Source: Psammoneis japonica
Taxonomy: Eukaryota
NCBI GenBank assembly: GCA_008632985.1
Contig: QPGO01000094.1
Span: 292,721-345,460, forward strand
Direction: 5' to 3'
DNA length: 52,740 bases
A program made the position numbers and the translations under genes. The notes below the pieces were generated by a model. It was not told where the DNA came from. It saw only the letters and a program-made list of their open reading frames with translations, and did not search any database. Each line of letters starts with the position of its first letter. The stretch's first letter is position 1. This document shows, piece by piece, positions 2,258-23,857 of the stretch.

Positions 2258-2274
2258 TCTCTCTCTCTCTCTCT
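2258..2274. repeat. (TC)n microsatellite just downstream of the ValRS stop
   Basis: tctctctctctctctct read directly. Confidence 0.8.
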
Positions 2275-2599: not shown

Positions 2600-3080
2600 A
2601 TCTGGAATCCTCTTCACATTACTGCCAACCTCGATTTCGAATTGGCCTTTCTGCTCCTTGAAAGTGGAGCCGATCCAAACTCGACCGATCGATGGGGACT
2701 CGTGCCTCGATGCGGCTAGGCTGCTTTCGAGTACGGAGCAAAGCCTGGACACAACAGACGAAGACGGGATGATGGCTCTGTGTTACATCTGCCACGACAG
2801 TAACCTCGGAGGCGTCAAGTTCCCCTCTTGACATTGGAGCTTCAATGCGCGCGCGTGACTCGGAGGGGTGGGAACCAATTCACTATGCAACCATTGAAGG
2901 AAATTCTGATATCGTCAAGGTAATTTTGGAGCGAGGAGCCAGCCCCAATGCAACAAGAAATGATGGAGAGCCTGCGCTCTACCATGAAAGTGCTGCGGGA
3001 CATTGGAGCATCTGCAGATTACTATGATTGATTTGGGTGCGCACTTGACTGTTCGTGGTCGTCGACATCTGCAACGCTGA
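2600..3080 (+). pseudogene. Ankyrin-repeat pseudogene/fragment
   Basis: Ankyrin-like pieces in shifting frames: WNPLHITANLDFELAFLLLESGADPNSTDRWG; DEDGMMALCYIC; LDIGASMRARDSEGWEPIHYATIEGNSDIVKVILERGASPNA; GHWSICRLL/IDLGA. Interrupted by stops and frameshifts. Confidence 0.75.
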
Positions 3081-4107
3081 GAGATCATCAATTGCGAAGC
3101 CGCAAATAAAACGTGTTTTGCATCATTCAAAGGCGAAAACCTCATAGGTTTGAAACAATACAACGTCATAGTGTTGCTCAAAGCTCGATTTTCTTCATGC
3201 TGTAGTGTACCGCGTCACCAATAATCTCGTTTGCTCCGAACCGCGTTCTTGGTACTGACATCCAACTTTTCTCCATCGGCGTCATCTTCTCTTACTGTAC
3301 AAGGTGTGAACCTCCGGCTGACAGCCAAAACGTCTCTCGCATCATAGCGGAGAGTGGCCCTCATTATCGATCGCCAGTTTAAACGATAGAACACGTCAGT
3401 CTACAAAGGACAGTCACGCGGAAAGCTCACAAACTGGGTCTCACTCCTAAACCAGAGTGGTCGAACGGGAATGTCATGCTGGACCAGTAACGCGAATCTC
3501 CAGGGGAAAAAGAGAGCACATGCCAGCACCTCGTTTCTCCCTTCTAAGCATTCGAAGCTCCATAAACCTGTCTTACTTCAATCAAACTTCCTTTCGAGTC
3601 TTTCACCGCGAAATTCGCTTCCATATTCTCCATCGCATTACCTTCGTTGCTCCCAACTCTGTGGAGAGTCCTCTGAAGAGCTCACCGCCTCTAACGCCAT
3701 TTACCACCATCGATACAACCTTCAAGATCGCCTAAAGTGAGCATTAGGCCCTGCACCGGCAGTGACTTTGTAGCCGAGGTTGCTGTCATGGACAACCTTG
3801 ATCTCCTCACGCGCCGCACCGAGATCGCTACTTCGTGTCTTGAATTAACTACCTTGTTTGCCCAATTCTTGTAGAATAAGCACCGGTCACACCACCCGTC
3901 GTTTTCATCCTTGTCCTGTCGTGATAAAAACCTTGACAAACGCATTATGTGCTGATGTTGACTGAAACAGTCCACCTTGTCAACGACACAATCACAATCA
4001 TCGGAGAGAACTCAGATTCAGAGCGCGTGCTCTACCGCCGACTCGGAGATCTGCTGCCATGAACGTCTCCTTTCATTATCCACAATGAAATTGTCAAGCT
4101 CAGCAGA

Positions 4108-4707
4108 CTATCTATTCCTGCTACTCGTAGAATGCTCTTCATACGCTGCTTTCAACTCAGAATACCTTGCGACAGCCGCAAAGCATTCTTTTCTTCCCGG
4201 CAATGATTCTTGATTATGAGCTGCCATGTTGCCATATTCTCGAATGGTGTGCATGGCGTTGATCAATTCTCTCACTGCAATTTGGTTTGGGTGACTTGGA
4301 AGGCATTCAAACTGCTTTATCTTTTCGAACAGATTTTTTGCCTGCCGCCCGGTTAGTTTGATTCTCAAATAGGTTTCTAGGTTGGCACGCATTTGAAGCA
4401 TGTGACTTGACAAACGCTTTCTTTCCGCAGCATCTTCTTCCGATGAGGCAGTTGCACAGTTGTCGTCATCCACCAGCTGCGTCAAGCAAGGCGCCTCGTC
4501 GTGCCGTTGTTGTTGCGACCGGGCTAGAGCGAAACGAGACGCTGGTGCACAGACGACGACGCTGCTTAAGCCCAGCTCTTTCTCGACTTCTTCCAAGGCT
4601 TTCACAAGAACAAAATCAGGCAGACAGCATGATTGAAACTCGTCCTCCTCTTGAGAGACCTCAACAGCGGCGTAAGGAGTGAATTGTGGTGGTGTCATGC
4701 CGTCCAT
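4108..4707 (-). CDS. Single-exon 199-aa protein with a C-terminal DUF4145-like (HEPN superfamily) domain
   Basis: Pattern MRANLE...NLFEKIKQF...AMHTIREYGNMAAH resembles the DUF4145 consensus (RxxLE ... LxxKI ... lRxxGNxAAH). Recognised by eye only. Confidence 0.6.
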   Translation of the reverse strand: MDGMTPPQFTPYAAVEVSQEEDEFQSCCLPDFVLVKALEEVEKELGLSSVVVCAPASRFALARSQQQRHDEAPCLTQLVDDDNCATASSEEDAAERKRLSSHMLQMRANLETYLRIKLTGRQAKNLFEKIKQFECLPSHPNQIAVRELINAMHTIREYGNMAAHNQESLPGRKECFAAVARYSELKAAYEEHSTSSRNR

Positions 4708-5594
4708 CGTTGTTGGTTTCTCGCTCCGTCAGTTCTCGCTGTGTAAGATTTGAACACACCATTCAAAACACGTAAGTCGAATCTCAAGAGGGAGGAAACT
4801 CTCCACTCCTAGCTAGCTAGAGCGGCAATCATACATGCTGATACATTAATATGAAATTGGCTCGAGAAATTTAGCTCCATGTTCGGCTTACGCTGCTACT
4901 ACGGTACAGGAGTGCTGACGTTGTTCTTGCAGTGGGTAGCCGGAAGGACCGACGTGTTTGATTGAGAGCAACGGACTGTGCGTCCCGTTCACGGGAAATA
5001 GCCGTGCATTGTTCAACAATGAGGCGTTGATCTAAAAGTGAAGGTCATAATGTCCTTACTCACTCTACTCACTCTCTCGTCTTCTCCTTTTTTAGTTGTA
5101 CTGTAAAACTAAATCTAATAAAAATATGCCACTTTGTGGCTTGTGAAATATCTAACCATACATCATCTGTCTTAGCGTACAAGCAACCCCCCAAAAGCAT
5201 TGTGAATGAACCCGAACAAATGTAATTCTCGGAGCTCGGAGTGACACAATGTCAAAAAAGGATTCTAAAATGTTTAAGTCGGCATCTGGTCGAGCATACC
5301 GTCTTGTCGGTCGCACGGAATCATGATGACGCATGCTCCTAGAACACACCATGGTCTTTTTTCTACATGGAAGCTTCGTCCGAGCCATAGTCAGGGATAC
5401 CGTAGCGCTCAAGACTCACAATCAGACCAGGCGACAACACAACGTTTTCTTCGCTGGAAGAACGCCAACGATTCTTTGGTGGGTCCAGCGTTCGTGACCT
5501 AGTTTGTTGGCGATAGTCCTGCGCTTCACGATGAAGCCTTTTTATCCTGACTCTTCGACCTCGGTGCGAGAGGGTGCTTCGGGTGGACTTGGTT

Positions 5595-6332
5595 TCAATG
5601 CTGGTGTATGAAAAATCCGTGCTGACGAGGAGTCGTCTTATGATGTAGACACGGTTGCGATAATGGGAATATGGATGCCGTGTTTGTAAATGTCCGTCTG
5701 CTTCGTTGCAAGCTAAGGGATAGACATCGCCTTCGCTTTCTCATCGATGATTGACTATCATCATCGAGTCTGTCCCTGCGACTGAGTCTTCCTGCACCAG
5801 TCGACATTGCTTCATACTTGTCGCTCGCTGGAGTAATAATGGCGTCGTCTCCAGAGGTATCAGTTTCCGCTTCCAAAACTCCGTCATATCCTTCAGAATT
5901 CGACGAGGCGGAGACTTGCGGGGTAAAGGAATCGACGCGGTGCATCCAAGTTGAAGACAGCCCAGAGTCAAGTAGCCGCACGTCGGGAGCTGATTTGGTT
6001 CTTGTCAGCGTAGAGTAGCTGTGGAGGCCGGAGACGGTCGACATGGTCGATGTACAGCTCCTGCTATTGTCCTCTGTATCGCTGTTCTCAAACTCTTCTA
6101 GGTCACGGTCTGTTTCTTCATCAATTGTGGTATCTAACAAGGACGTACCAGAGGCGAGGGAGTTTCCGACACCGCCTAAGTTGTCGACTTCTCGATCTGC
6201 CTCGATGTTGCCGACTCCACCTGGGTATGGTACAGTAGGTGCGTCGCTTTGGGTTTCGAGATTGGACGACGACGACGACTCGGGCAGAGAGCTCAAGAAG
6301 CATGCCGGGGACGACGGGGGCAAAATTATCAA
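5595..6332 (-). CDS. Ser/Asp-rich hypothetical protein; start uncertain (no in-frame ATG at the ORF start, possible 5' exon)
   Basis: 245-codon open frame of disordered composition, divergent from PEX3. No recognisable domain. Confidence 0.35.
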   Translation of the reverse strand: MIILPPSSPACFLSSLPESSSSSNLETQSDAPTVPYPGGVGNIEADREVDNLGGVGNSLASGTSLLDTTIDEETDRDLEEFENSDTEDNSRSCTSTMSTVSGLHSYSTLTRTKSAPDVRLLDSGLSSTWMHRVDSFTPQVSASSNSEGYDGVLEAETDTSGDDAIITPASDKYEAMSTGAGRLSRRDRLDDDSQSSMRKRRRCLSLSLQRSRRTFTNTASIFPLSQPCLHHKTTPRQHGFFIHQH

Positions 6333-8910: not shown

Positions 8911-9103
8911 TTTGTTTGAATAAAGAGTCTAAAAGTGAGAGTCGGAGATGTCAGTGGGGTGTTGATGGCTTTCGTTGTCGTCGGCTTGGCAGGAGCAACT
9001 AGCAATCTATCTGCAAGTCGTCATCGTGGCGGCAGCATCGTGCGTGCACTCTCACTTCTGTACGCAAAAGAAACTCCTCAGCGAACATAATTCTCAACCA
9101 AAT

Positions 9104-9221: not shown

Positions 9222-9501
9222 AATTCAAACGCTGGGGAGAGATATATTGGTATTACTTCTACGTGGAACCTACGTAGAAGTATCTGCAGTCTGCATAGCG
9301 CATCAAAAAGAAACCGATTGATTCGACAATGGCGCTTCTGCCGTTGTCTCTAAGTTTGCACCATGGGCTGTATCCAGCTCCTCATGGAAATGGACTCACT
9401 CTTTGTTGCAGCGAGTAGAGAGCAGAGATTCCACCACGAGATGTTATGTTTCGTATTTTGTGATTTGATCGACCGTCGTCTTTCATGAAACACCACGTCG
9501 C

Positions 9502-10443
9502 GTGACCGAGGGAGGATTTAAAAGTGTGCGTTGGATTTGGTCACGTATATTCGTAAAGAATATGGAACTGAATTTGGAATTTCCGTAGCCGGATATCCCG
9601 AGGGACATCCCAATGCCATTTCGAAAATGGATAACAAGGAAGAAATGACCGATACCCGATACGGAAAAGGCGCGATCGTCGTGTTTTGATGGAATCACGT
9701 ACACGTGCAAGGATGAAGATTACAAAAAGGAAATGGAGTATCTCAAACAAAAAGTGGATGCTGGAGCAGGTATGTTCTTTTTTGTTGTTGTATTGGTATT
9801 ATTATTGTTGTTCTCAGTTATTCTCACTACTCTCTTCTTTCTCGTTTTGTTGTGTGTCTTAGATTTTATAATTACACAAATGTTTTTTGACATTGATGTA
9901 TTCAAAACCTTTTGTCGTGATTGTCGTGACATGGGTATTACCGTCCCCATTGTTCCGGGTCTCATGTGCATCAATGCCTGTCCTGGATTTCGAAAAATGA
10001 CGAAATTTTGCAAAACACGTGTCCCCCAATGGCTCGATGAGAAAATGGAATCTCTCAAAGACGACGCCGATGCCGTCAAGGCGTTTGGTGTCGAGTTTGG
10101 TGTACAAATTTGTCAACAAATTATCGATTCCAACGATTTGACGCCCGTGTTGCATTTTTATACATTGAATTTGGAAAAGGTGGTTTATGGCATTTTGGAT
10201 GGTGTGGGATTGGCACAAAATGCTTTCGACAAGGCCAATGAAGCCGATGCCAAAGACATGGTGGCCATGGGTAGTGCGTGGGCGCGTGTGGGGGATGCCG
10301 TAACAAGTGTCCATGGACAGCATATCGTCAAGGAAGTGCGCAAGGGTGGAGTAGCAGTGGTGGAAATGAACAAATGGATCATGGCGGATGGACAAAAGCC
10401 CATGGCGTATTTGCAAGGAGGACAATACAAAAAGGTGTTCTAG
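9502..10443 (+). pseudogene. MTHFR: 5'-truncated, frameshifted methylenetetrahydrofolate reductase (MTHFR/MetF family)
   Basis: TEGGF..CALDLVTYIRKEYGTEFGISVAGYPEGHP; YLKQKVDAGA|DFIITQMFFD; PIVPGLMCI; LHFYTLNLE. About +2 nt frameshift near 9520; 7-bp tandem duplication ccgatac (9649-9662) shifts frame; 93-bp GT-AG intron 9770-9862; N-terminal part absent. Confidence 0.88.
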
Positions 10444-10905
10444 ATAGACGAGCGAGTAGCAGCAGTGGTAGTGTAGCTAGAGCGTGTTGTTGTTGAAATG
10501 AGTGGTTCCTGTAAAGTCGTATCGCGTGCTTGTATGATTAAACTATGAATGCAGGGACGGGGTAGTTTTGTTCATTCCAGGTGGACGCTTCTTACTTGTG
10601 ACTCTCTTGTGTGCCGCACGCCTCTAGAGCAAGGTGCCGGATATAGTAGGGCCTTCTAGTCCATTACATCTCACCTGCCGGCAGCCCTACTAGCTCTACT
10701 ATTATACGTGGCGTTATGGAGAGAGGTGGATTCAAAAAAAAATTAATGAATGGAAAAGGTGTTGCTATTCAAAGGAGTTCACATTCGTATGACACGATTC
10801 ATCTCTAAGGTTCGTTGGTCTTTGTTACTTTTTTTATCGGTTTTGTAGGATGTATCTACTTGGGCTTTTAGAGATAGACCTAGCAGCTATGGTGTACAAC
10901 TATCT
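10431..10905 (+). repeat. TA-retaining copy of a ~480-bp segment (MTHFR 3' end and flank) duplicated at ~16118-16600
   Basis: Shared blocks such as gttgttgttgaaa.gagtgg.tcctgtaaagtcgt, gaatgcagggacgggg.agttttgttcattccag, aatgaatggaaaaggtg and gcttttagag. Confidence 0.85.
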
Positions 10906-11762
10906 CGACCTGCAGTACCCTCTAGCTAGAGTAAAGACTGCTAGCAGTGGAGACAGGTGCAGTAGAGTGGAATGACGAAAACAGACGTTCGAAGCGAAGA
11001 TATCATGCTAGCTCGTAATGTCCACTTTCCCACGCACAGAAAGCCCTCAAAGAAAGAGAAATTGCGTGACAACTACGTGGCAGATAGAAGAAAGCAAGCT
11101 CAATTTGCTTTCTCACACTCTCCGCTCGCTCACCACACAAACTCGGCAACGTCGGCTGAAACCAAAAAACATTGAACCTGACGTGATTGCGGCTGCAACA
11201 TTTCGGAAAAGATTGACACCAGAACAGCTTGATCATTTCATTCCACCCCGCACCCCGCCCTTATTTTCATTGGCCAGGGAAACTACCTGGCAGTACGCGC
11301 GCGTGAGAAGTTCACGTGCAACGTCACCCAGTGGCGCGGGGGAAGGGACAGACGCGGGGCAATGGCGGAACGGAGTCGTCATGCAGGCAGGAAAAGGGAT
11401 GGATTTCGAGTTGGGGTTTGATGTTTGCGATTGTAGTTTGGTGGAGTAGCGGGTTAGTTGGTCAGCGAGCGATTTGGTGATCGCGAGGCTCAGGCTCTGT
11501 AGACCCCATTGTGATGGTGTTGAGGAGTGGTGGGTCAGGCCAAAGGAGCACTCGGCAGAGATGGTTTGCCAGGTGGCGGTGGCAGCAGGGAGGATGACAG
11601 ACGGGGATTGTTGGGCGCAGGCGTGTGCAGCATGGGCAGCTGTGGTGGGGGAGAATGTGGTGATGTCATGGTTGCATGGCAGTTCATGTCTCATTCATCA
11701 CATTTTTGCATGAATGTTCTTGCACTCATTTGTGCATTTGCACACAAGTGCCAACAGCAGCA

Positions 11763-13758
11763 GGAAAAATCCTGAACCACATTCTCCCCTAAAACTCTGA
11801 CCACCAAAAACTGAGGGTGCAGAAGCACACTTTTGGCAGCTCTTTTCTCCGCACAAAAAACACGTGTTTTGACCACTCAACCATGACGGTGCCTCGTGGT
11901 TCTTCCCCATCGCCTTCCCAGGATGCCGATCCTGCTGACACCGTTGCTGATGACACTGATGCAACAGGTGATGTCATTGTTCCGGTTCTCATGGGTGTGA
12001 TGCATGCAAAATAAGATGCCACAAACTCACACTGTTGTTTGCATGCTCCACCGCCTCCCACAGATGCCATCACGAATTCCAAAGCCGCGCCTGCATTTCG
12101 GGCCCCCAGCATGCCCGACGCTGTTGCTCCTGTCCTCACTGCCGCAGGTGCTGTTGATGCTGTCATTGTCTTTTGCCAACAACGTCCACAACGAAGTGCC
12201 AACAACTCACACTTCTTTCATTCTCACCCTGACGCCTCCCACAGATGCCATCACAAATTCCAACGCCGCACCTGCGTTTCGGGCCCCTGGCATGCCCGAC
12301 ACTGTCACTCCCACCCTTGCTGCGCAGGTGCTGTTGACACTGTCATTGTCTTTTGCCAACAACACCCACAATGAAGTGCTTGTAACTCACACTTCTTTCA
12401 TTCTCGCCCTGCCGCCTCCCACAGATGCCACCACGAATTCCAATGCCGCACCTGCGTTTCCACCCCCTGGCACGCCCGACACTGTTAATCCCACCCTTGC
12501 TGCTGCAGTTGCTGTTGACACTGTCATTGTTTTTGCTTTGGAAGGAGCACAGTGGATGACGGCAGACCAGGAAACCCACGCAACCATGGCCTGCTGATGG
12601 ACGACACATCAATGGACATGAACAGCGCCTCTTGGTTGGCTCTCGAGTGCAGTCTGATCCTTGGAATGTGCAGACACATCATGTGGCTCCCTGCAAATTA
12701 GAAACCTGACAACAATCAGATGGCAGGCATGCTTTCACAGTTTTTTAGTTTCAAGTTGGAGAGGTCAGTGAATTGGTGTTTGTTTGCAGGCAACTTGGCA
12801 AGGTTTCAAGTGGTGCATGTGACTTGGACACTGCTCTGTTTTCCAGGACTGAGTCATCATGTGCAATTCCACAAGAGGCCACTCTCGCCATTTGAAGTCC
12901 ACACATGATGTGCAACATGCTGTTTTTGTAAGTTGCCAAAATGGAGGCAGGCAGCAACGTGCTTTTGGCAAATGCTTGCCATGTTTGTCGCTGTTGGACC
13001 TTCAAAAGTGGTGCCATGTCAACAGCTGTGCTGCCACTTTGCATGCCGGAACCTTCTGTGCCCGCACTCCATCAGTTGCATCCTCCTTCACATGTTGCTG
13101 CAGTTCATCTTGACACCTGTTGTTGGCTCCGATTGGTTCCACTGGGCTCTGGGTGAGTCTCAATCACCTCCAGATGGAGGAGGTTCTGCTTGGGAATGAT
13201 CATCCTGAGAAAAGTCATCACCACACCTCCCATCATAGATGCTCCTCTGCCATGCCCACGCCCACACAAGGAGCATCGACCAGTGCATCAGTGCTCGTTG
13301 ATCCCATGCCTTTGTTGTTCCAAGCAAAATCACCTCGCTCTGCTGCCACCAGGCCCGGTTGCACCCATGGCAGTCAGAGCACAAGTGGGATTGTTTTGCC
13401 TTGTTGTTGCATTGTGCTTGATTGCAGTGCTCAATGACAAATGGCAGCAATGTCGTCCACGGTCAATTTTAGATCCGGTGAAAATGGGCCCAAACTTCAG
13501 GATCGCAAATCTGCTGTGTTGGGGTTGCAACAGCGGGTTCAACGGCACTGGCCAGTGCAGGAGAGACTGCCATGTCAGGAACAGCAGGTGAGCATGCGTC
13601 AGGTGGTGTGGGGGACAAAGAACGGGAGGTCGTCATGGTCGAGTCGTCAAAACGCGTGATGTTTTGGTGTGTGCACTGTCTTCCAAAAAGTGCGTTTCTG
13701 CACCCTCGGTTTTTGGTGGTCAGAGTTTTGGGGGAGCTGTGGAACAGGAATTTTTGCT
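11763..13758. mobile_element. ~2-kb degenerate element with ~125-bp terminal inverted repeats (MULE/foldback-like)
   Basis: 11763-11888 (ggaaaaatcctgaaccac...aaaactctgaccaccaaaaactgagggtgcagaa...ccatgacg) is an imperfect reverse complement of 13631-13758 (cgtcatgg...ttctgcaccctcggtttttggtggtcagagtttt...caggaatttttg). No TSD and no transposase recognised. Confidence 0.65.
12020..12535 (+). repeat. Tandem repeat, ~180-bp unit x3
   Basis: cagatgcc anchor at 12061, 12242 and 12422; unit ends in ctgtcattgt(c/t)tttgc. Confidence 0.9.
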
Positions 13759-13931
13759 TGTGGAACACACACACACACACATGTGGACATCAACATTGAA
13801 ACTCAATGCACGGTGAAGCCGTGCGCGCGCAACCACGAACACACACACACAGCTCCCCCACCACAGGGGTGATTTCATTCATCACTTTGGGCCTCCTTTT
13901 GAATTGCCAACTGTCTTGCATTGGTTTTGAA

Positions 13932-14222
13932 GTGCATTCAACGGTCCAATGCTTTTACATTGAAAATGTTCATTGATCAATGTTTGCATGTTCCCTTTCC
14001 ACAAAAAGGCCCAGAATTCGCAATCGCGGCCCAGCAAATCGCAGTCGCGGCCCAGTCTCAACGCATTCAACGGTCCAACGCTTTCACATTAAAAATGTTC
14101 ATTGACTGACATTTGCATGTTCATTTTCTACAAAAAGGCCCAGAATTCTCAATCGCGGCCCACCAAATTGCAGTCGCAGCCCAGTCTCAATGCATTCAAC
14201 GGTCCAACGCTTTTACATTAAA
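13932..14222 (+). repeat. Tandem repeat, 129-bp unit x~2.3, with a partial direct copy at ~27831-27910
   Basis: gcattcaacggtccaa at 13934, 14063 and 14192. aaatgttcattga.tgacatttg..tgttcattttct...caatc.cggcccac recurs at 27856-27906. Confidence 0.85.
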
Positions 14223-14316
14223 ATTAGACGCGGCAATCATGATGTTTTCCGTTCGGTTTTGGCTGCACCGACACATGTCCTTTGTCCATCACAACACAAG
14301 CACCTGATGAAACAGT

Positions 14317-16080
14317 CTCTCAAGTGCAATCAGCTTGCATTTCATCACCCACTGCTGCATGGCCGGGTGTTGGTGGCTGCCATGCATTGGCTTTTGATCT
14401 CTCAAACTCGGCCTGAAAAGAAGGGTGCAAAGCATCCGTCAACAGCCCACATCCAAACCCATTGTGGGGTGTTCCCCGGCTTTTGCTGCAACTCAACTTT
14501 AGCTTCCACAGGGCTGTGCGGTCTTTTACTTCCCAACTTCACCAGTCTGAAGCAACGCCAGTCAGCGATGTTGTGAGTTTTGGCTGCCAATCACATGTGG
14601 TTTCATCACGTGTGATGCTGTGCCACTGGGAGATGCAACACCAGAAACTGCACCACCAGCAGATGCTCCAGTGCTCTTGCTTGTTCAGGAACAGCAATGC
14701 TGCAGCCTCCACGATGCCGCAGCCATCATCCCTCATTGCGAGGAGTGCAGAGCCGGAAGTCAAACATGCCGATTTTCTAGAGGGGTTCGGGACCGTCAAA
14801 TTGTTGCTGGGGCAATTGTGTCAACATGACATGGAAGAGAAAATGCCGTTGGCGGACGCTCACTTTTTTGGCAATCTTTGTTTCAGTTTTTTGGCACAAC
14901 AAACACAACATCACCATGATGGGTCGAATCACCACCTCGCCTTGAAACGGATCACTCAACCAACATGAGCAACGCGCTGCCTCAAATGGGGTGACATTGC
15001 CATGTTCCACTTCAGTGATTGCCTTTGCCACCGGCAAAAATGCAGAAATGAGTGACATGAATTTTCAAGATGAACAAACCGCTGAAACCACTTCTTGGCA
15101 AGAAGAAGCACACTGGATGTCCTTTCGACAAGCTGTGAAGCAATTTTCCTCATCTCGCCTGGTGCCGAAAAAGAATTTGATCAACAAACAGCCACAGACG
15201 TGTGACAACATTGCAGTTTCGTCATCGTTGTCAAGGCTGACAAACCAAGCACGAGCATGCCAGCATGACGATGATTTCTCCTTCTTGTCCTTGACACCCA
15301 GCAGCAGCTGCACGGACACCATCATTTCTGCCACTGACTTTTCATCCAAGCAAGAGCATTGTTCATTTGCATCTGAGACCACCAAGTCAAGTCCACTGTC
15401 ATTGGCATCAGATTTGGCAGAAACAAAAATGAGACTCACCCTTGCTCAAGTGGAGTGCAACAAATTGGAGTTTGCCTTGACACAGAACAAGTCAATGTGA
15501 GATGCACCCAAACACCACAGCACAAAGCACATTTTGCAATCCTGACATGGCTTCCCACGAGACTTGTTTTGGAGTGCAGCTTCCTGGAAAACAATGCTGT
15601 TGAGGCCTTTCTTGTTTTGTGTGGATTGCTGGAAAAATGGTGATGCTCCTGCCAGCCACGCAGCTGCGCTTCCTTCTTGCTCAGATGATGCCTCTTTCAG
15701 AACAGAGCATTCATTGACATGCGTCATGGAGGTCCTTGGTTGTTCTTGCTGGATCAGCCAGCACACGGGCAATTCTCCTCAAAGCATTGATTCAAAGCCT
15801 GCTGGCGCAGCGCAGTCCACTTGATGATGCTGCGTGGGATTCATCCAACTTGCGTGCCTGCGCTGTGTTCAAACAAAGTTGTGCTTTCTTCCGACTGCTG
15901 CATCCACAGTGTTTGATCTTGTTTTAACCAGATGGCTTCATTTCCCACAATGACAAAAAAGCTGAGCCAGCAGAAGGCATGGTGGTCTGGCAACGGCAAG
16001 TGAAGAACCGATTGGACGAATCAATGGCAAGTGGCAGATCAGTTTGAAAGCTTTGGCAAAGGCACATGCAAAACGTTCAA
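14317..16080 (+). repeat. Copy 1 of a ~1.8-1.9-kb diverged direct duplication (copy 2 at ~23858-25798)
   Basis: Shared tcagcttgcatttcatca, ctctcaaactcggcctgaaaag, ctcttgcttgttcaggaacagc, aagaatttgatcaacaaacagcc, cagaacaagtcaatgtgaga and atcaatggca.gtggcagatcagttt. Confidence 0.9.
14991..15500 (+). pseudogene. Mutated copy of a small Ser-rich protein with a coiled-coil C terminus (paralog at ~24590-25093)
   Basis: Both copies end ...SPLSLASDLAETKMRL(T/A)LAQVECN(K/E)LEFAL.QNKSM*. Reverting TG/CA to CG gives the more heptad-like AQAERDELEFAL (inference). Confidence 0.55.
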
Positions 16081-16117
16081 GTGCACATCGCAGAGAGCAG
16101 AGCCCAACGTCATGTCC

Positions 16118-16600
16118 AAAGGTGCTCAAGAGAGACAAGCAAGTGATGGCAGCACAGCCAGAGCATGTTGTTGTTGAAACGAGTGGCTCCTGTAAAGTCG
16201 TGTCATGTCATGCTTGCAAGATTAAACTTAGAATGCAGGGACGGGGCAGTTTTGTTCATTCCAGTTGATGCTTCTCATGTGACTGCTGGAGCATGGACAC
16301 TTCTCGTGCAGCTAACAGGAGAGTGTGTTTTCGTGTCATGCTTGTGTGATTAAACTTTGAATGCAAAAAAAGAAAGACTCTCTGTCTCTCTTTCTTGTGT
16401 GTGCTGCATGCTGGCAAGGTGCCGGGCACCATTGTCCATCTCAACCTTGCCTCCATCAGTGCACATGCCATTCTGGAATGAATGGAAAAGGTGCTGCTTT
16501 TTTAAAAAATGGAGTTCATTAGAGTGGCGCTGTTCATCTCTGCGGTTGCACTTGTGCTTTTAGAGTTCAAGACTGGCGGCCAAGCATTTGCAACCAATGG
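16118..16600 (+). repeat. TA/CG-converted copy of 10431-10905
   Basis: Examples: gacgagcgagta->gacaagcaagtg, tagctag->cagccag, gtcgtatc->gtcgtgtc, ggggtagtttt->ggggcagtttt. Confidence 0.85.
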
Positions 16601-19600
16601 CTGTCATGTGCGACTGTCTTGAGCTGGCAGAGACTCACAGGCAGGCACTGCATTCATAGATGCTGAGGGCACGTCCCCATGAAAAGTGCACCCACTTTGA
16701 AAATCTGGTGTCATTCTTTTCGTGCTCTTCACAACATTGTCGGCCAATCAGGGCCCACTCATCACATTGTGGATGACTGCATTTGGTGAGCATTTCATCC
16801 TCAAAATGTCTGCATCCTCAGTCATGATTGATTCTGACTCACATTCCCAGGAGACCTCATCATCCAACCCAACGTAATCCACGCTAAACTGTTCTTCCAG
16901 ACGGTTCTTGGCCATCTTCCACATTGCTCCAACAGTCCTGTCTTTCTTGCGTGCAACCAAGATCAGATGAAAGGGGGGGCAAAAAAGGTTTTGTGCCCAC
17001 ATTGTGTCCATCCACACATCTCCCTCCTTGAAAAAGAGTGCTGGTTTCGGAATCTCCAAGTGGCACTCGTGCATCAATCGCAAAACTTCAGATGGGAGTG
17101 CAGGGACAATGTGTCTCAAGACAAAGGTTTCAGGATTGAAAGCATCACACAGCTGTCATGCTTCTACTGTCATGTTGAAATCGATGCTTTGGAGTTGTTT
17201 CATGTCACATCTGGTCAGGTCGCAAGTGCCCGGCATCCAGCGCACCGCTCCATGCTCTGCAACAACTTTTAGATTGCCAAAATGAGTGAATGACAAGAGG
17301 GCGTGTTCTGGCAAATGTGGTGTGTCAACAAAGAGTTTCCCGACCCCCTCTTTGTCACAGAACAATGGAGGCAAGCCATCAACACCACCCAGATGAGTTG
17401 GCACATTTGTCTCATCCAATTGTTTCTGAATGAAAGTTGCACATGCATGTCCGTGACCACATGAGATGCAATTGTGCTTCTGTCTCTGCCAATCTGACCA
17501 TGAAGACGAATCCTCTCGACTTTTTCATCATTGCCATCATTTCTGCTTTCAGGGACAATGGCATCAAAAACCACAGTCCCCAGTGCATGACGATGACTGG
17601 CATCACTGACACGATCATGCCTGGAAAAAGGACAAATCGACGCACTGCAGATCAAATCATGCATTCCTTTCAAGTCCTCAGGACGCAGCATCCTGAGCAA
17701 ACACCAAGCCCGGCTCTGGAAGACCAAAAAACTCAATCATTCATTCCTCTGTGAACGGCAAACCAGTGAGACTGGGGCACTGGCAACCCAAGCTTCGTGA
17801 TTGTTCACAGCAATGCATGCACTCCGTGTCCAACATTCTTGCTTGCTCCACTCCACGACTGATGACACCAACTCTTTTGTGTCATGCCCTCTGCCAATCC
17901 CTCATTTCTGTTGCCGGGAATTCTCTGCAACTGCATCAAACACAGCAAACAACCAATTCCATGTTGCTGATTCACGTCCATTGGAGGCGCACATTGTGGA
18001 ACAGCAAAACCACAACAACTTCTGCACAGGCACGCAGAGATGCACCCGGGCTAGATTTTCTCTCTTGATTGTGTCACGCCTGAAAGCAAACTGAATTGAC
18101 AAAGAAGAGTCACACAGTTCTGGCACCGTACAGTGGCACAGCAAGGAGCGACAAGCTTGAGCAATCTCTGCTCCTGCGATGGCTCCATGGTGCATGCCGG
18201 CACAGCAGAGCAAGAGAAGTCAAAAACTTGCACCAAAAAAGCATGAGGGAGGATGGGCTGGTGCACTGCACACAAATGGTGCTTGCTTCTGACAAAGGGC
18301 CATCTCCCATGATTGATTTGGACTGTGCAGCACCTCAGCAGAGACAATGTCAGCAGGACCCAACTGCAAAAAAGCAAGAACTTGTTTTTGCACAAATGAG
18401 GAAAGTGAACGTGACAACCACAACAACAGCTGATGTTTGATGTTGCTTTTCTTCCCACAGCACTCACCAGCCAGCCAGAGGCTCCTGATTTCCATGTGGC
18501 AGAGGCAGATTTGAAAAATTCTTGAGAAGGACCACACCCCTCCACCAATCTCCCTTCCAGCATCCCTTGGCACCTTTGCATCTTGCTCATGGAAGGGGGG
18601 GGAGGCAACTTGCAAAGTCTGGCAACCAAGACAGTGTTGCTTGCTTGCCTTGTTTTTCAGCCCAGGCAAAATGAGATGCACAGCACACAAGCTGCTTTTG
18701 CAAGCACAGCTGCCAGAGCCAATGCTGGGCTGAACATGTGCTGGTGTGTTGGCCCCCTTTTGTCTGTCATTGTTCACTCACAATGATGATGATGACACAC
18801 GATGACACACACTGCCCTCTCTCCTCTTCACTTGTGCTTGGTGGCCCAGCAGCACCTGTTTAGAGCTTCAAACAGAAATCTGTTGTGACAGCAAGTTGCT
18901 CAAAGGTGAAGGAGTGATGTGTGTGCAATTGCCAGCAACACATCATGTCTGAAGAGAGAGAGGGGGTTGTTGGCCGGCCAGACATCATGTGGCCACTTGC
19001 ACATGTGACGGAGAAGACACACCACTTCACACACCAGCCAATTGGATTTCTTTGCCCACAAAGTTCTCTCAAAAGGACTCAGACTGGAGATGACTTTTTG
19101 CCAAAAAAAAGAGTGAATGGAATGGCAGCTTTGTCTTTGGTGTTTGGTTTTGCTCCCATGCCTTTTCTTGGCATTTGTTTGACTGCACAAAGTCACTCAA
19201 AACCCCAAAGCTTTGGTGGGAAGAGAAGTCATTTTCATTGGCAACACAAGGCCTCTGAGTGAAAATTCTTCCTTTTGATTGTTTTGATCTGTGGCAGCCT
19301 TGATTGTTGAGCCCAGCTTCTTTTTTTTTTTGCCTTTTTTGACAGAACAAACTTGCTGCTTGCTTCTCACAAAATTCCTGGACAATCTTCAGCTGTGGCA
19401 AGAACAAGTCATTTTGGCAAAACAAAGCCTCCAAGCAAAAAAATTCTTTCAGTGGCCTTTGGTTGCCATGTTGAGTTTCCATTCTTTGTTGTGCCCACTC
19501 AACTGCACATGCTTGTCACTTGCTCCTGAACAAATCTGAGAAAATCATTTTACAGTTTGACCCACAGCAGCCTTTGATTGCTGCACTGAGCTTCCCTGTC

Positions 19601-20810
19601 TCATTTTGGCACTTGCCAAACCCGGCAGTTCTTCTTTTGGAAAAACAAGTTGAAAAACAGTGTGCATGTCTGCATCAAAATTCTTCTTGGATGTTTTGAT
19701 CTGCAGCAGCCTTTGGTTGTTGTGTTGAGTTTCCATGTTTTTTGCAACACTCACTTCTTGACTGCATGACTTGTGGCTTCCCAGAGCTGAGGATTGAAAT
19801 TGTCCCACAACCCCTCAACTCAGAAGAAGTTTGTCTTTCAACCACATTGAGTGCATGTTATGGTCTGCCTTTTGTGCAGAAATGTGATGCACTGCTCTGC
19901 TCTGCTCCTGCATGTGCATCACATTCCAAAGAGCTTGTCATTTTCAAAATGAGTTGATCCTCCTGCAGAGTCTTGTCAAGCTCCAGTTGCAGGTTTGTTC
20001 AAGATGGACAATTCTTGTGAAGGATCTTCTTTCTCTTTCTCTCTTGCAATGTGGTGCTGCACACTGGCACAGTGCTGGGTGCAGCAGGGCCCTGTCACAA
20101 CTTGCCTGGCTGCGCTGGCACTCATGTCATTCTGAACAGAGCTGGGCACTCAGAAACCAAAAAATGAACAAATGGAAAAAGAGTTGATGTTGTCAAAGGA
20201 GTTTGCTTGCATGGCACAATTTGTCTCTGAGGTTCATTGCTTTTTTTGTCAGAATGTTGCTGATTTTGCAGGATGCCACACTCACTTGTTGGGCTTCTGC
20301 TGGAGGCAGAACCCAAGTGGCTTTGATGTGCAGGAGTCATCTTGAGCTGCTGGCACAGAGCAGAAGCTGCAAACAGGGAGACTGCTGCAGCCAGCTTGAT
20401 GAAAGCAGAGCAATGGGGACAGACACTGGAAGTCATGCAGCATTTGTTCCATCTGCAGTTAAAGAGAAATTGTGTGGCAACTGCCCCAAATGTTGGAAGA
20501 GACTGTGTGACACCAGAAAAAAGGACACACTCAAGCTGCTTTAATTCTTTCCACCTGCACAACAACAACAAAAAATCATCCAACAACACTGAAACAAAAA
20601 GTGACAAGGTGACTGTGGCATTTTCTTCTTGGTTTCAGCCAACATGCACATCCTTTGTGTCCATCCCAATTTTTCAGCATTGCAAAACAGCACCAACAGG
20701 ATCTTTTGGGGCTGGGGCTGTCCCATGTTCCATGTGTCTTTGAAGCTGCAACTGTCACAGTGTCCTTTGCACTGTGTTGTTCCAAGCTGTTGCAGTCTGC
20801 TTTTGTCAAT

Positions 20811-20970
20811 GCAGAAGCAACATGCAGCCCCACAGCTGTCATCACCATGTTGTCCTCTCTTGTCTTTGTGATCATCATGATCAATGTGGGCAAAAAGCAA
20901 CACACAGCCACACAGCTGTCATCACAACCATGCTGCCTTCTCTTGTCTTTGTGAACATCATGATCAACAT
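20811..20970 (+). repeat. ~80-bp tandem duplication
   Basis: gca(g/a)aagcaaca..cagcc.cacagctgtcatcac...tctcttgtctttgtga.catcatgatcaa occurs twice. Confidence 0.8.
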
Positions 20971-23857
20971 TGATTGCTGACTGCAACTTGGTCGGAGTTG
21001 TGATTTGTCACAGAAGAGCATGCACAGCTGGCTTGATGCTGCTCTTTGGCTCAGCTGTGTTGCATTTTGCCACAAGATCTCAACACAGCTGCCATCACAA
21101 CATTCTTGGTGCTTCTCTGTTGGGCTTGCCAGGAGTGTGCACAAAGCTCATGGACACATGCATTTGCTCATCAAGTGGCAGAGCTTTCCAGGTGTTGCTT
21201 TGAATTTGGTCTGGTTGTCTGTGTCACTGAGTCTCCCACCTGGAGAGCAAAGTCTGTCTCTTCTTTGTCAACAGTTCAAGCCATTCTTACAAAAGTGCAC
21301 ATGGCTTGCTGTTTTCATGTTCCAGGAAACCACGAAGCATGTTGGCTGGACATGCATTGTTTTTTTGTTCAAGCATGTTGACAGGACAAGAGCTGTCATC
21401 TTCTTCTTGTTCAACAAATGATTTTGTGATGTCACAGGCCTCATGGGATTTTTCTTGCATCTCATCATGTTGGGAGTGGCGCTGGCATTTTGCATTTGTG
21501 TGCACAGGACGGGGTGGATCGAACTTGTCAGCAACCAAGGGCAATCTGTCTTTCCTCACCAATGGTCATGTCAAGAAGCTTTTGAAGGCACCAACATCTG
21601 CTGAACTCAAGAAGGGTCAGTGTGCATGTTGCCACGACCATCAAAATTGACACATTCAGGGCAAAAATTTTAAAAGTTTGTTTCAATGATGACCGTGCCC
21701 CTTTTGCAATGTAAAAAAGAGCAGCGCACACAAGCAGCAAATGACTGGTGACCACCTTTTTCAGATGCTTCAAGTTTTTCAGTGATGTCTGTGATGGTGA
21801 TCCCTGGGGCACAACTTGTGAGATTCTGAAAGTGTGTGCTGTTGCTTGAAGTCTTGTGACAGAAGCAGGATGCCACCAAGATGTCAGACTGGGGAGGATT
21901 GCTGAGTGCATTGTTGCAGATGTGGTTGTGGGGTGTCTGGGTTCATTCTTTGTTTGATGGTTGCTGTCCAAGCAGCTCCATTCAAGCAAAATTGGGGGCA
22001 TGGATGGCAGCACTTTTTTGAACAAGAGTTTCAAGACAATGCTGACTGTCAAGCTCAAGCTTGTGTTGGCTGCACATGTGAGCCAAATTGACTCACCCAA
22101 ACTCAGCCCCCCACATTGTGGTGGAATTGCAAATGAAGTTGCTTCAAAGCTTGCCAGTGCAAAAAGAGAACCTTTTTTTAAAACCAAGATGTGCAAGAAT
22201 GATGGCCCCCAGACAGTTGGTGGAAAGAATTGAAGCCAGGCAGGACTTGTTCTTCTGCTGCTCATTTTGTGTGTTGAATGTTCAAGAACATTGGTGTCTT
22301 TTGCAAAATGCATGTTGGGTTGATTTGTCATTGCACTGGTCTTCTCCATCTCATGGCACAATGGTTTTGCTTGAACAAAGTTGGGGCTGCTTTTTAGCAC
22401 CAGCAGTGCCCACTCATGCCATCCCCTCTTTGAGTTGTTCACAGTTGTCACAATGCTGCAGACAGTTTTTTTGCCCTCTGGATGCCAGCTGGGCAGTGCA
22501 GAGAGCAGACCAACATTGACTTTGACTCATTGGAGACAATGTGACAACCAAACTGTTGCATCTTCCTGGTGCAAAAAGCAACAGACCATGAGAACAAACA
22601 GATGTTTTGATGAACATTTTGGCATTGTTGCTTGAAGCACAATTGTGGATTAAGAAGCACCCACAGCTCTCAGTTCTGGTTGAAGACATTGCAGCACCTG
22701 TCCAAACCTGTGTTCTCACAAGGCAACATCTTGTGTCTCTGCAAGGAGAGCTCTCACAAAAGCCATGCCACTGCTCATCCAAAGGCTTGTTTCAAGAAGA
22801 TTTTTTCTGTGGCTTGGGCTGCATCAGCCTCCTTGACATCAGAGGAGTTTGAGAGGTTCTGTGAGGGGATCTTTTCTGTCTTGGGAAGTGGGTGGGTTCA
22901 TGCTTTTGACATTTGAAGGATTCTGGCTTGATTGCATCACTTGAGACCTGCAGGAGGTCTCACAACGTGGCATCCTGCCACCACAACACAAATGTTGGTG
23001 TCAAGTGCCTTGAGCAGCAGCACATGTGCTGCTGCCACTGAGACACAGAGATGTCCTGCCATCATGGCAAGAGTTGCTTTGAATCAATTGCATTTGCCCA
23101 CAATGATGGAGAATGCCAGCTGTGGTGTTGTGCTGGTTCTTTTCCTTGTGGTGCATCTGACTCCCCCTTTCAGTGCACACTGAGCTGTCATTCTGAGGGC
23201 ATCCAAAATGCCTTGACAGTCAAAGCAGCCAACATTGATGGGAGCTCTGCAGGCTTTTGTGTTTGTTGCAATTGTGGTGGCAATGGGTTGTCTCTCAGTT
23301 GTTGCTCTTGTCATCCATTTTCTTGTGGTTCAATTTGTTGTTGAAAAGTGGTGCTGGAGGTGGCCAAAGCCTCTTGAGAATAAGAACATCGATGCTTTGC
23401 ACAGGGAGCAGAAAGAGAATTGGACATCAACAAAAAAGCAAACTCGATGTGTGCAAGCCCTGCATCCCCAATTTTGCAGGTGCACACTCTTGCACCCATC
23501 ATCATCCAAGGGAGGTTTGGCAACAATTGAGAAGTTGTTTGAATTCTCAATGGCATTTTCTGGCATTTGGCTCTGACTGCACAAAAAGCAAATCATCACA
23601 TTGGCGGTGGTGTGGTTTCTTCTGCCCAAGGTCATGAGCATGATTTGGAGCGACAGTGTCTTCTGTGCTGGCTTGATGTGCTTGTAAAATGGCAAACAGT
23701 TGATGTCTTTGCCTTGATCATTTCTCTTGAATCTGCTCTTTGCATGTCGTCCATTGAGAAAGCCCGGAGCCTGGATGTGGCATTTCTTGTTTGCTGGGAC
23801 CTGATCATGGCTGGCCCCAATGTGAGGTTTGCATGCCAATGCAACTGTTCACCCAAT

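Follow-up and report, generated by a model that had tools for sequence, protein, structure and literature searches.

A TA-Erased Island in a Diatom Genome Suggests In-Place, Position-Restricted Conversion of TA to CA or TG

The window analyzed here, a 52,740-nt stretch of the diatom Psammoneis japonica (contig QPGO01000094.1), contains a 16.3-kb island in which the dinucleotide TA is almost absent and a copy of island sequence, 600 bp outside it, in which TA is retained. Comparison of sequences inside and outside the island suggests, with a probability that we put at roughly three in four, that a position-restricted process converted 5'-TA-3' to CA or TG in place, and that CG decayed to TG or CA in the same domain. 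Conversion of TA would have been nearly complete across the island, and a second island of ~2 kb is in the same state.

Two TA-Erased Domains and Their Surroundings

The domains and the genes that flank the larger one are:

11500-27816 (about), unstranded: TA-erased domain 1, with 61 TA against ~642 expected over 16.3 kb
18501-23500, unstranded: CpG-free core nested in domain 1, with 0-5 CG per 500 bp
50255-52200 (about), unstranded: TA-erased domain 2, with 7 TA in 1950 bp, CA 210, TG 192
9522-10443, plus strand: last exons of MTHFR, with Pfam MTHFR matches at 9522-9689 (E 3.6e-10) and 9733-10443 (E 2.7e-37) and the stop at 10443
28939-33024, minus strand: MFS-type transporter gene, convergent with MTHFR

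Each 1-kb window of domain 1 (11001-27001) has a TA observed/expected of 0.01-0.23, compared with 0.40-0.80 outside, and in 1-kb windows CA stands at 1.5-2.2 times expectation, TG at 1.4-1.95 times, and the two together at 1.62-1.94 times. Calculated by hand, the excess of CA and TG (~0.079 per bp) is roughly equal to the joint deficit of TA and CG (~0.072 per bp). An earlier note on this DNA claimed that both strands are affected, and at the scale of the domain the totals agree (CA 1828, TG 1784). The longest run without TA measures 1147 bp in domain 1, against a maximum of 203 bp outside. The cluster thresholds of a 2026 preprint on the chlorarachniophyte Bigelowiella natans (Mettrop et al., bioRxiv 10.64898/2026.01.13.699255) are passed by 17 of 52 1-kb windows, comprising 16 consecutive windows (12001-28000) and that at 51001. 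GC-biased gene conversion, an AT>GC drift that yields higher GC, is ruled out by a GC content of 0.485 inside the domain, unchanged from the flanks (0.477 and 0.481).

The right limit of domain 1 is sharp, with 0 TA over 27041-27816 and 11 TA within the following 200 bp, while on the left the TA-free zone starts ~190 bp into multi-copy sequence whose own start is near 11307-11344. CG observed/expected falls to 0.02-0.17 in the 1-kb windows of 18001-23001; this CpG-free core (18.5-23.5 kb) occupies only part of the TA-free zone (11.5-27.8 kb), and everywhere TA has been lost more completely than CG.

Domain 1, an island made up of repeats and pseudogenes, is flanked by two expressed genes that converge on it with their 3' ends. 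The MTHFR exons flank a 93-nt GT..AG intron (~9770-9862), a contig from a public run skips 9768-9860, and a cDNA-like contig of the MFS-type transporter extends down to 28069. Three repeats mark the domain:

11765-13754, unstranded: high-copy element of ~2 kb delimited by ~145-nt inverted repeats (11765-11908 and 13611-13754)
13934-14223, plus strand: tandem repeat with a 129-bp unit, found by repeat search and self-BLAST (pairs P4a and P4b)
26401-27700, unstranded: very high-copy repeat at the right edge, with summed contig depth 17700-31300 (read in 650-bp bins) against a baseline of 70-130

The ~2-kb element contains 180-bp tandem repeats (11937-12534) and has a summed contig depth of 2000-5700 on the same baseline. 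The DNA at 14051-26400, by contrast, has the depth of single-copy sequence (67-134, as in the flanking genes), but TA is as scarce there as in the high-copy edge repeats. A TA-retaining relative of the 129-bp repeat is found just beyond the domain, at 27808-27910. Contigs of the public run, which may share the window's sample, match 13844-14931, 15107-16377, 17092-18080 and 24488-26156 with 0-2 differences each. Recognizable host function is absent from most of domain 1. A search of 57 ORFs from both domains and their edges for viral or transposon protein domains returned no Pfam family above the cut-off, no homologue was found for the ORF at 21528-22526, and no deaminase gene was found in the 52,740-nt window.

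An Outside Copy That Retains TA and Its Inside Counterparts

Three related sequences allow the inside of the domain to be compared with the outside:

10431-10915, plus strand: copy A, TA-retaining, in the 3' flank of MTHFR and beginning 12 nt before the stop
16118-16630, plus strand: copy B, the converted counterpart of copy A, identified by alignment and repeat search
20123-20275, plus strand: copy C, a third and converted relative of copy A (10707-10852), at 68% identity (pair P2)

Copies A and B, which the earlier note had put forward as a before/after pair, are both present. Their core alignment (10431-10598 with 16118-16281) shows 78% identity counting gaps over 171 columns, self-BLAST pairs 10466-10592 with 16147-16275 (83% over 130, E 9e-28), and repeat-search families D7-D9, D13 and D14 cover the same stretch. 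The comparison over the full 475-480 bp made in that note holds for the core and a number of blocks but not throughout: past ~10600 the copies can be aligned only as patchy blocks, out to 10915 and 16630 (for example 10745-10823 with 16477-16560, 70%), and reliably comparable sequence amounts to ~250 bp. The example strings that it quoted are all found, with gagta to aagtg and gtcgtatc to gtcgtgtc sitting in gaps, where they depend on the alignment. Copy B also contains insertions, among them an internal duplication (16203-16237 and 16331-16365).

Copy A, ~600 bp beyond the boundary, is spared as the earlier note had it, with TA observed/expected near 1 (~0.9-1.35 by composition count). Its depth is that of single-copy DNA, and a 755-nt contig of the public run spans 10553-11307 with 0 differences; a contig over 15751-16377 likewise matches the sequence of copy B with 0 differences. 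Eight TA remain in copy B, every one in a TTA or TAA context.

At the 14 aligned TA sites of copy A (pairs P1 and P1b), copy B has CA at 6, TG at 1, TA at 2 and another state at 5, whereas in the reverse direction TA is found inside at none of 31 outside TG/CA sites (7 vs 0, p ~0.016 in a sign test by hand). Pooling five outside/inside pairs, which are short (75-161 aligned sites each), chosen by alignability, and use outside 10737-10823 twice (against copy B and against copy C), we find 24 aligned outside TA sites, of which 13 read CA/TG inside, 2 still read TA and 9 have some other state, against 0 of 74 in reverse (13 vs 0, p ~0.0002). The dinucleotide spectrum is therefore asymmetric, as the earlier note predicted. 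Its view that TA is ancestral is supported by this asymmetry, by the 61 TA found where ~642 are expected and, from the inside duplicates described below, by the 41 CA|TG doubles and the TA-normal relatives of a pseudogene. Both TA sites kept in the pairs lie in TAA/TTAA contexts, and the pair counts confirm that tgTAAag and atTAAac were retained.

CG is altered too, again as had been claimed: 5 of the 11 CG sites aligned in the A/B pair are CA/TG in copy B and 2 are kept, with 2 outside TG/CA sites reading CG inside in the reverse direction. In the five pairs pooled, half of the outside CG sites (12 of 24) read CA/TG inside, compared with 2 in reverse, a CpG depletion with the matching gain of TpG/CpA that characterizes CpG decay. 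Strand outcome in the pairs is skewed, with 10 CA and 3 TG at TA sites and 8 CA and 4 TG at CG sites. These comparisons make A and B a probable true before/after pair, produced in place by position-restricted mutation.

Independent Conversion of Duplicates Inside the Domain

Two long duplicates within domain 1 record changes that followed their separation:

14300-16112, plus strand: inside duplicate 1, holding pseudogene copy 1 (14946-15500), which belongs to a conserved family of small proteins
23841-25840, plus strand: inside duplicate 2, holding pseudogene copy 2 (ORF 24302-25093)

These duplicates, which include 3' flanks, are 80% identical over 1755 aligned bases and have diverged through independent conversions. 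They differ at 41 adjacent CA|TG doubles, of which ~16 are expected from CpG alone; the next class, CC|TT, numbers 8, and adjacent transition pairs total 55 against 27.3 ± 4.6 in shuffles. Since CA|TG doubles need a TA or CG intermediate, they argue for conversion in place, after duplication. A rough calculation by hand gives ~92% of TA and ~58% of CpG converted per copy since duplication, from which we estimate, equally roughly, that the TA process here was ~3 times faster than CpG decay. In inside duplicate 1, derived CA number 46 and TG 23, and the skew toward CA in this duplicate and in the outside/inside pairs sits uneasily with strict strand symmetry.

The same duplicates bear on a reservation in the earlier note, that copy A might have escaped by being younger. 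This is disfavored: on a transversion clock that presumes the same rate inside the domain and outside, A and B differ at 20 of 238 sites (8.4%), not below the 125 of 1755 (7.1%) at which the inside duplicates differ, and because the duplicates kept converting after their split, copy A does not appear to be younger.

The pseudogene gives an external reference for polarity. Its family is cellular in metagenome loci, and no relatives were found in a viral contig collection. TA observed/expected is 0.52-0.86 in nine loci that code for its relatives in other organisms, and in five of these coding TA runs at 24-38 per kb, compared with 0-3.8 in the window copies. The family motif A-E-R-D, in which E is invariant and A, R and D are conserved in all aligned homologues, reads V-E-C-N in both window copies (GCG>GTG, CGN>TGC, C|GAY>C|AAC), and their cysteine content is 3.3-6.8%, compared with 0.4% in 17 homologues.

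Sequence Context of TA Loss

Loss of TA follows the hierarchy ATA > GTA > CTA > TTA, with domain/outside trinucleotide ratios of 0.02, 0.05, 0.12 and 0.23, respectively. Among the 68 surviving TA, TTAA is over-represented 6.2-fold and CTAA 3.5-fold, and ATAT and ATAC are absent. AA and GA are not depleted in the domain, which makes T at position -1 a near-absolute requirement, and TC observed/expected (0.74-1.29) resembles that outside. The specificity of TA loss thus looks enzyme-like. TA is palindromic, and A>G on one strand is therefore indistinguishable from T>C on the other.

Possible Mechanism and Alternative Explanations

In the scheme that we favor, position would have decided the outcome, with copy B converted within the island and copy A left unconverted in the 3' flank of MTHFR, 600 bp outside. 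The TA changes may result from enzymatic deamination of adenine in a T-A context to hypoxanthine, which is read as G, as has been proposed for B. natans, and the CG changes from deamination of 5-methylcytosine. Both deaminations would be guided to the island by its silent state and not by sequence repetition. The earlier note had likewise attributed targeting to a chromatin domain rather than to pairing of duplicates. Dependence on position and independence of copy number stand, given that single-copy 14051-26400 is TA-free and copy A is spared; for the chromatin component, limits as sharp as those seen here would also fit targeting by the ends of inserted elements. The signature, read from assembled contigs of one sample in which no de novo event was seen, is historical, and the process may now be inactive.

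An in-place domain process could also act on thymine. A TET/JBP-type enzyme could oxidize the T of T-A to 5-hydroxymethyl- or 5-formyl-uracil, mispairing of these bases with G would then lead to T>C, and TA>CA and TA>TG can be read equally well as T>C. In dinoflagellates, 5-hydroxymethyluracil is reported to take the place of T preferentially in TpA and TpC. TpC, however, is not lost from the domain, and the sole experimental precedent, B. natans, is interpreted by its authors, as a proposal in the preprint text, as adenine deamination; we regard thymine chemistry as unlikely. A fungal-type, RIP-like process would recognize repeats by homology, and the interior that is now unique would once have been repeated. 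High-copy repeats do form both edges of the domain, and old duplicates lie in its interior, but TA here is destroyed and not created, copy A is untouched despite its homology to B and C, conversion is as complete in DNA at single-copy depth as in the repeats, and the inside duplicates kept converting down to ~80% identity. The direction of change and the sparing of copy A rule out membership in fungal-type RIP, and a duplication-dependent mechanism of any such kind is very improbable.

Editing might instead have preceded arrival, through ADAR-like A>I changes on double-stranded RNA followed by reverse transcription, or on viral DNA before integration, so that the domain is the sum of pre-mutated inserts. 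The sharp limits near the ends of high-copy repeats would suit this, and ADAR favors U ahead of the edited A, according to the preprint's discussion (bioRxiv 10.64898/2026.01.13.699255). Yet the loss of TA reaches 77-98% in all four NTA contexts and spans at least six unrelated blocks (among them the inverted-repeat element, tandem repeats and host-type pseudogenes), the near-absolute T at -1 is unlike ADAR, the duplicates, 3' flanks included, diverged by independent conversions, and the TA-free zone starts ~190 bp within multi-copy sequence and not at its start. We consider pre-edited inserts very improbable as well. Intrinsic composition, whether from foreign DNA or from selection against TA and with no conversion at all, would accord with the scarcity of recognizable host function in the domain, but homologues just outside (copy A and 27808-27910) have TA where the inside has CA/TG, the pseudogene family is TA-normal in other organisms and yielded no match in the viral contig collection, and the inside duplicates are discordant at CA|TG positions; this account is scarcely credible. 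An assembly or sequencing artefact, for which nothing was found in favor, has next to no probability, as contigs of the public run, possibly from the same sample, match copy B and other inside stretches with 0-2 differences.

Comparison With Known Systems

In-place conversion of the kind favored here has one close parallel. In print, hypermutation of TpA to TpG/CpA was found for B. natans alone, in the 2026 preprint (Mettrop et al., bioRxiv 10.64898/2026.01.13.699255), whose text describes 124 TpA-poor, CpA+TpG-rich genomic clusters, mostly unannotated, and mutation-accumulation lines with 231 de novo changes in two integrated viral regions, of which 230, every one on TpA, were A>G or T>C. The two cases share change of TpA to TpG/CpA on both strands, local TpA depletion with CpA+TpG enrichment, an effect on single-copy DNA, and a region that is silent or foreign-looking. 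They differ in host, a diatom here and a chlorarachniophyte there, and in stage, the present signature being historical and near-saturated (TA observed/expected 0.01-0.16) and the other de novo, with 0.45 given for the NCLDV region. No viral gene was found in the diatom domains, where the converted sequences include pseudogenes of a host family and a copy of the flank of a host gene. Co-located CpG loss, the order ATA>GTA>CTA>TTA and sharp limits go unmentioned in the main text of the preprint ('CpG' and 'boundar' each occur 0 times), whose supplements may hold context data.

Other systems resemble the present one in part. RIP, known from Neurospora and other fungi, likewise introduces irreversible transitions into repeats and selfish DNA, with a dinucleotide footprint as the result, but it changes C>T at CpA and thereby creates TpA, and it requires a duplicated partner and mutates both copies, whereas here TpA is lost, conversion extends to DNA at single-copy depth, and copy A outside the domain has escaped it. 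The decay of CpG in methylated repeats is matched by the change of CG to TG/CA in the same island, with a core at 0.02-0.17 and polarity given by outgroup codons; it accounts for the CG part only, and not for the wider and more complete loss of TA. Cytosine methylation is documented in the diatom Phaeodactylum, as cited in PMC6604790. ADAR and APOBEC3 of animals also produce deaminase-type clusters of transitions that inactivate selfish nucleic acids, but they act on RNA or single-stranded intermediates and leave strand-coordinated clusters in individual copies, in contrast to a fixed chromosomal domain changed on both strands. Runs tests for strand coordination among converted sites were not significant (p 0.21, 0.08 and 0.53), and this result and the near-absolute T at -1 argue against ADAR-type hyper-editing in this domain with its inverted-repeat element and tandem repeats.

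Implications

Three features add to what the published text of the preprint contains. The natural before/after pair, with its spared copy 600 bp out, bears on targeting; the ATA > GTA > CTA > TTA hierarchy constrains any candidate enzyme; and the nesting with CpG decay would link the process to silencing. For genome annotation, tracts from which TA has been erased lack TAA and TAG, and would consequently show long spurious ORFs and hide decayed transposons. A natural activity that changes A in duplex DNA would interest builders of base editors.

If our reading is true, TpA-directed hypermutation is not peculiar to one chlorarachniophyte but occurs also in diatoms, a major and experimentally tractable algal group, and there has run to saturation. 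It is possible, although on balance doubtful, that diatoms hold a dedicated TpA-specific DNA-editing defense that acts on duplex chromosomal DNA in silenced domains, beside CpG methylation and with a preference for 5'-RTA over 5'-YTA, irreversibly scrambling even copies of host genes. Such a system would be an adenine-based counterpart of RIP and APOBEC, relying on a naturally occurring enzyme that targets adenine in double-stranded DNA, and, given the same signature in a rhizarian alga, it would be old and widespread in SAR lineages.

Paired copies inside and outside a TA-erased domain

The contrast between a TA-retaining sequence in the 3' flank of MTHFR (copy A) and a converted relative of it (copy B) is confirmed. 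The features discussed below are as follows:

10431-10915, copy A, TA-retaining, 3' flank of MTHFR
16118-16630, copy B, converted
20123-20275, copy C, converted relative of copy A
about 11500-27816, domain 1, TA-erased ("inside" and "outside" refer to this domain)
14300-16112, inside duplicate 1, with pseudogene copy 1
23841-25840, inside duplicate 2, with pseudogene copy 2
left edge of domain 1, element of about 2 kb with inverted repeats of about 145 nt at its ends and 180-bp tandem repeats within (repeat search and self-BLAST)
50255-52200, domain 2, TA-erased, 7 TA in 1950 bp, CA 210, TG 192, CG observed/expected 0 to 0.9

All eight before/after strings quoted in the earlier note were found in the two stretches. 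The local alignment of copies A and B begins exactly at 10431 and 16118, with a core of 171 columns (10431-10598 against 16118-16281, 78% identity with gaps counted), and self-BLAST of the window recovers 10466-10592 against 16147-16275 (83% over 130 columns, E 9e-28). Past about 10600 the copies can be aligned in blocks only, such as 10745-10823 against 16477-16560 at 70%, and copy B carries inserted material that includes a short internal duplication (16203-16237 / 16331-16365). The pair is real, and base-by-base comparison is possible over only about 250 bp. Copy A starts 12 nt upstream of the MTHFR stop codon (10443). In transition-tolerant alignments, the MTHFR coding sequence showed no homology to the DNA preceding copy B, nor did the stretches downstream of the two copies to each other, and copies A and B each aligned to the stretch after inside duplicate 2 only with scores within the shuffle range, as in the other two comparisons. 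Because these extension scores do not exceed shuffles, the duplication is confined to about 480 bp without MTHFR coding sequence; the intact MTHFR locus, proposed earlier as a means of polarising the changes, therefore polarises nothing beyond copy A itself. One contig from a public run skips 93 nt inside copy A, joining 10436 to 10530, a junction that may reflect an allelic deletion or a paralogue.

Composition and limits of the domains

The dinucleotide profile places copy B within a large, sharply limited domain (domain 1) that holds 61 TA against approximately 642 predicted from the outside density. CA and TG each reach 1.4-2.2 times expectation, and by a hand calculation their joint excess (about 0.079 per bp) is roughly matched by the shortfall of TA and CG taken together (about 0.072 per bp). 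GC content is 0.485 in the domain compared with 0.477 and 0.481 outside, unchanged because conversions of TA to CA/TG and of CG to CA/TG cancel. The longest run without TA is 1147 bp in domain 1 and at most 203 bp outside. On the right there are no TA over 27041-27816 and then 11 within the next 200 bp; an (AC)n-like microsatellite, 'acacacacacacacaacaccaacaacacaacc', lies at 27706-27740, about 100 bp inside this limit. On the left, multi-copy sequence begins near 11307-11344, where a unique contig stops and several contigs show variant letters, and a cDNA-like contig of 1602 nt that originates elsewhere shows 6 differences in its match to 11344-11514. The first 190 bp or so of this multi-copy sequence keep 4 TA, so the start of the TA-free zone lies within the repeated sequence instead of coinciding with its end. 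CpG depletion is nested within the domain, with a CpG-free core at 18501-23500 (0-5 CG per 500 bp) and CG at 0.4-0.8 of expectation toward both edges. The core has single-copy depth, a search with its longest ORF (21528-22526) found no homologue, and this core may be older than the rest of domain 1.

Contigs from a public run, which may share a source sample with the window, were matched to 9501-29000 and reproduce several inside stretches, including copy B, with 0-2 differences, ruling out an assembly artefact. A high-copy repeat lies at each edge (summed depth 2000-5700 at 11451-14050 and 17700-31300 at 26401-27700), and the interior (14051-26400) has a depth of 67-134, as in the flanking genes. 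The inverted-repeat arms of the left-edge element (11784-11834 / 13686-13736) are 92% complementary, and where one arm has CCCCTAAAAC the other, reverse-complemented, has CCCCCAAAAC, a small TA-to-CA before/after within a single element. A second public run behaves like cDNA, since one spliced contig omits 9768-9860, corresponding to a GT..AG intron at about 9770-9862. On the left its cover ends near 11514 (contigs 10760-11197 and 11344-11514); on the right it resumes from about 27657, and a 5260-nt contig begins at 28069. There is almost no cover within domain 1, an absence that is no evidence of silence. Because cover of the flanking genes stops at its edges, domain 1 occupies the gap between the 3' ends of the convergent MTHFR (+) and MFS transporter (-) genes.

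Domain 2 starts about 75 bp past the stop of a 471-aa ORF (48765-50180), its right edge is crossed by ORF 51794-52486, and window self-BLAST shows no similarity between it and domain 1. No Pfam family was found above cut-off in 57 ORFs of both domains and their edges, and Rfam gave 0 matches over the whole window. Outside the domains, a direct repeat (34406-34665 / 35463-35738, 69% identity) has normal TA content.

Direction and timing of the changes

Within the A/B pair alone, the 14 aligned outside TA correspond in copy B to 6 CA, 1 TG, 2 kept and 5 other, and 0 of 31 aligned outside TG/CA are TA in copy B. Self-BLAST supplied further outside/inside pairs: 10707-10852 against copy C (20123-20275), 8922-8998 against 26123-26197 (inverted), and 27829-27910 against a 129-bp tandem repeat at 14065-14147. 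When five pairs are pooled, 24 outside TA become 10 CA, 3 TG, 2 kept and 9 other inside, with 0/74 outside TG/CA becoming TA; 24 outside CG become 8 CA, 4 TG, 5 kept and 7 other, with 2 changes in the reverse direction. Sign tests by hand on these pooled counts, which use the outside stretch 10737-10823 twice (against copies B and C), give p ~0.0002 for TA (13 vs 0) and p ~0.013 for CG (12 vs 2).

The earlier proposal that TA is the ancestral state agrees with three independent lines of evidence: discordance between the inside duplicates, the TA content of metagenome relatives, and outgroup codons. The inside duplicates share 80% identity across 1755 aligned bases and differ by 41 adjacent double changes in which CA in one copy faces TG in the other, compared with 8 for the next commonest class; there are 55 adjacent transition pairs, where shuffles give 27.3 +/- 4.6. 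CA facing TG requires an ancestral TA or CG that was converted separately in each copy, and conversion therefore continued in place after duplication. CpG is expected to account for about 16 of the 41, as judged from 17 sites with CG in both copies and 47 with CG facing TG or CA, and the remainder are attributed to TpA.

The inside duplicates carry an ORF (24302-25093) and its paralogue (14946-15500), which belong to a conserved small-protein family of unassigned function that has SWQEEAHWMSFR and SDLAETKMRLALAQAERDELEFAL as its motifs. A search of 1.84 billion representative proteins found 18 relatives at E <= 1e-3; Pfam detected no domain in any of the 17 homologues scanned, a viral contig collection contained no relative, and those found in metagenome loci are cellular. 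In the nine metagenome loci that encode relatives, TA observed/expected is an ordinary 0.52-0.86, and coding TA per kb is 24-38 in the five loci counted versus 0 and 3.8 in the two copies in the window. Those two also contain no Tyr, and 3.3-6.8% Cys versus 0.4% in homologues. The family's A-E-R-D (with E invariant and the other three residues conserved in every aligned homologue) reads V-E-C-N in both window copies, by way of GCG to GTG, CGN to TGC and C|GAY to C|AAC. Polarised by outgroup codons, these changes read as CpG decay, and with the conserved A-E-R-D lost both copies are pseudogenes.

The sparing of copy A might have been explained by its being younger than the converted copies, as the earlier note allowed. 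Transversions can serve as a clock because neither process makes them, and they amount to 20/238 (8.4%) between copies A and B and 125/1755 (7.1%) between the inside duplicates. On an equal clock, these values would place the A/B split no later than that of the inside duplicates, which gathered many conversions after splitting, and TA observed/expected in copy A is still about 1. A younger outside copy is thus disfavored, given small numbers and assumed equal rates inside and outside.

Sequence context and strand

The loss of TA depends on the base preceding T, as the ratios of domain to outside trinucleotides range from 0.02 (ATA) through 0.05 (GTA) and 0.12 (CTA) to 0.23 (TTA). Among 68 surviving TA, TTAA is over-represented 6.2-fold and CTAA 3.5-fold, and there are 0 survivors in ATAT or ATAC. 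All 8 TA left in copy B lie in TTA/TAA context, as do both TA kept in the pair, which are the tgTAAag and atTAAac named earlier as survivors. Because TA is palindromic, a rule at position -2 on one strand is indistinguishable from one at +1 on the other; strand choice scored by hand in 13 pair conversions was informative in 12, with 7 fitting the -2 rule and 5 the +1 rule.

The similar numbers of CA (1828) and TG (1784) across domain 1 indicate that both strands are used, and at this scale the earlier claim that both are hit holds. Locally, TA sites in the pairs are skewed toward CA (10 CA vs 3 TG). Over 14000-16300, CA exceeds TG among derived sites by 46 to 23 in inside duplicate 1 and by 10 to 1 in copy B next to it. 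TA-derived and CG-derived changes both show this excess, which hints at a strand bias shared by both processes there. Runs tests on CA/TG outcomes gave no significant strand-coordinated tracts (p 0.21, 0.08, 0.53).

Mechanism and relation to known systems

The pattern is most likely the product of an enzyme that would deaminate adenine to inosine at T-A steps, in place and in silent DNA, with decay of methyl-CpG probably running alongside. A hand estimate from the inside duplicates makes the TA process roughly three times faster than methyl-CpG decay. Oxidation of thymine instead of deamination of adenine is a chemical rival that fits the same sequence, and we regard it as improbable. The suggestion that targeting follows chromatin domain rather than pairing of duplicates is borne out only insofar as conversion is position-dependent and independent of copy number: the interior at single-copy depth is converted and copy A is spared. 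The very sharp domain limits are also compatible with targeting set by the ends of inserted elements.

Several known processes were considered. RIP is a functional analogue, and both of its defining tests fail here, in the direction of change and in the need for a duplicated partner. Editing of mobile intermediates by ADAR- or APOBEC-type enzymes does not account for a fixed domain of several elements in which both strands are converted, and GC-biased conversion is ruled out by the unchanged GC content.

The closest precedent is a preprint describing TpA to TpG/CpA hypermutation of integrated viral DNA in Bigelowiella natans (Mettrop et al., bioRxiv 10.64898/2026.01.13.699255). Of the 231 new changes in two integrated viral regions of mutation-accumulation lines, 230 were A>G or T>C, all on TpA, at approximately 1000 times the background mutation rate, and the genome holds 124 TpA-poor, CpA+TpG-rich clusters, mostly unannotated (bioRxiv 10.64898/2026.01.13.699255). 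Its authors propose an ADAT2-like adenine deaminase, put forward without a test (bioRxiv 10.64898/2026.01.13.699255). Candidate enzymes for the present case would include paralogues resembling ADAT2/TadA, and CDA-like deaminases joined to SAM and tudor domains that Iyer et al. 2011 (PMC3239186) note as specific to stramenopiles. The preprint's main text does not mention CpG, boundaries or extended sequence context, and its supplements may hold context data. A literature search that covered subscription journals thinly found no further account of hypermutation directed at TpA or of domains depleted in TpA, in diatoms or elsewhere; the consulted passages of a diatom mutation-accumulation study (PMC6604790) mentions no TpA hot spots.

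The host here is a diatom or close relative, as opposed to B. natans. Organism-named matches to the HSP90 and Pex3 proteins of the window are all from diatoms (Synedra-like, Helicotheca, Odontella, Nitzschia, Epithemia, Cylindrotheca, Fragilaria and Amphora), bar one ciliate transcriptome entry, with best identities to the collection of 85% and 50%, respectively, and no near-identical protein among the entries searched. By the thresholds given in the preprint, 16 consecutive 1-kb windows form a cluster here. The domain is of the same kind as those described in that single preprint, and what is new is its occurrence in a different lineage and the saturation that the process has reached.
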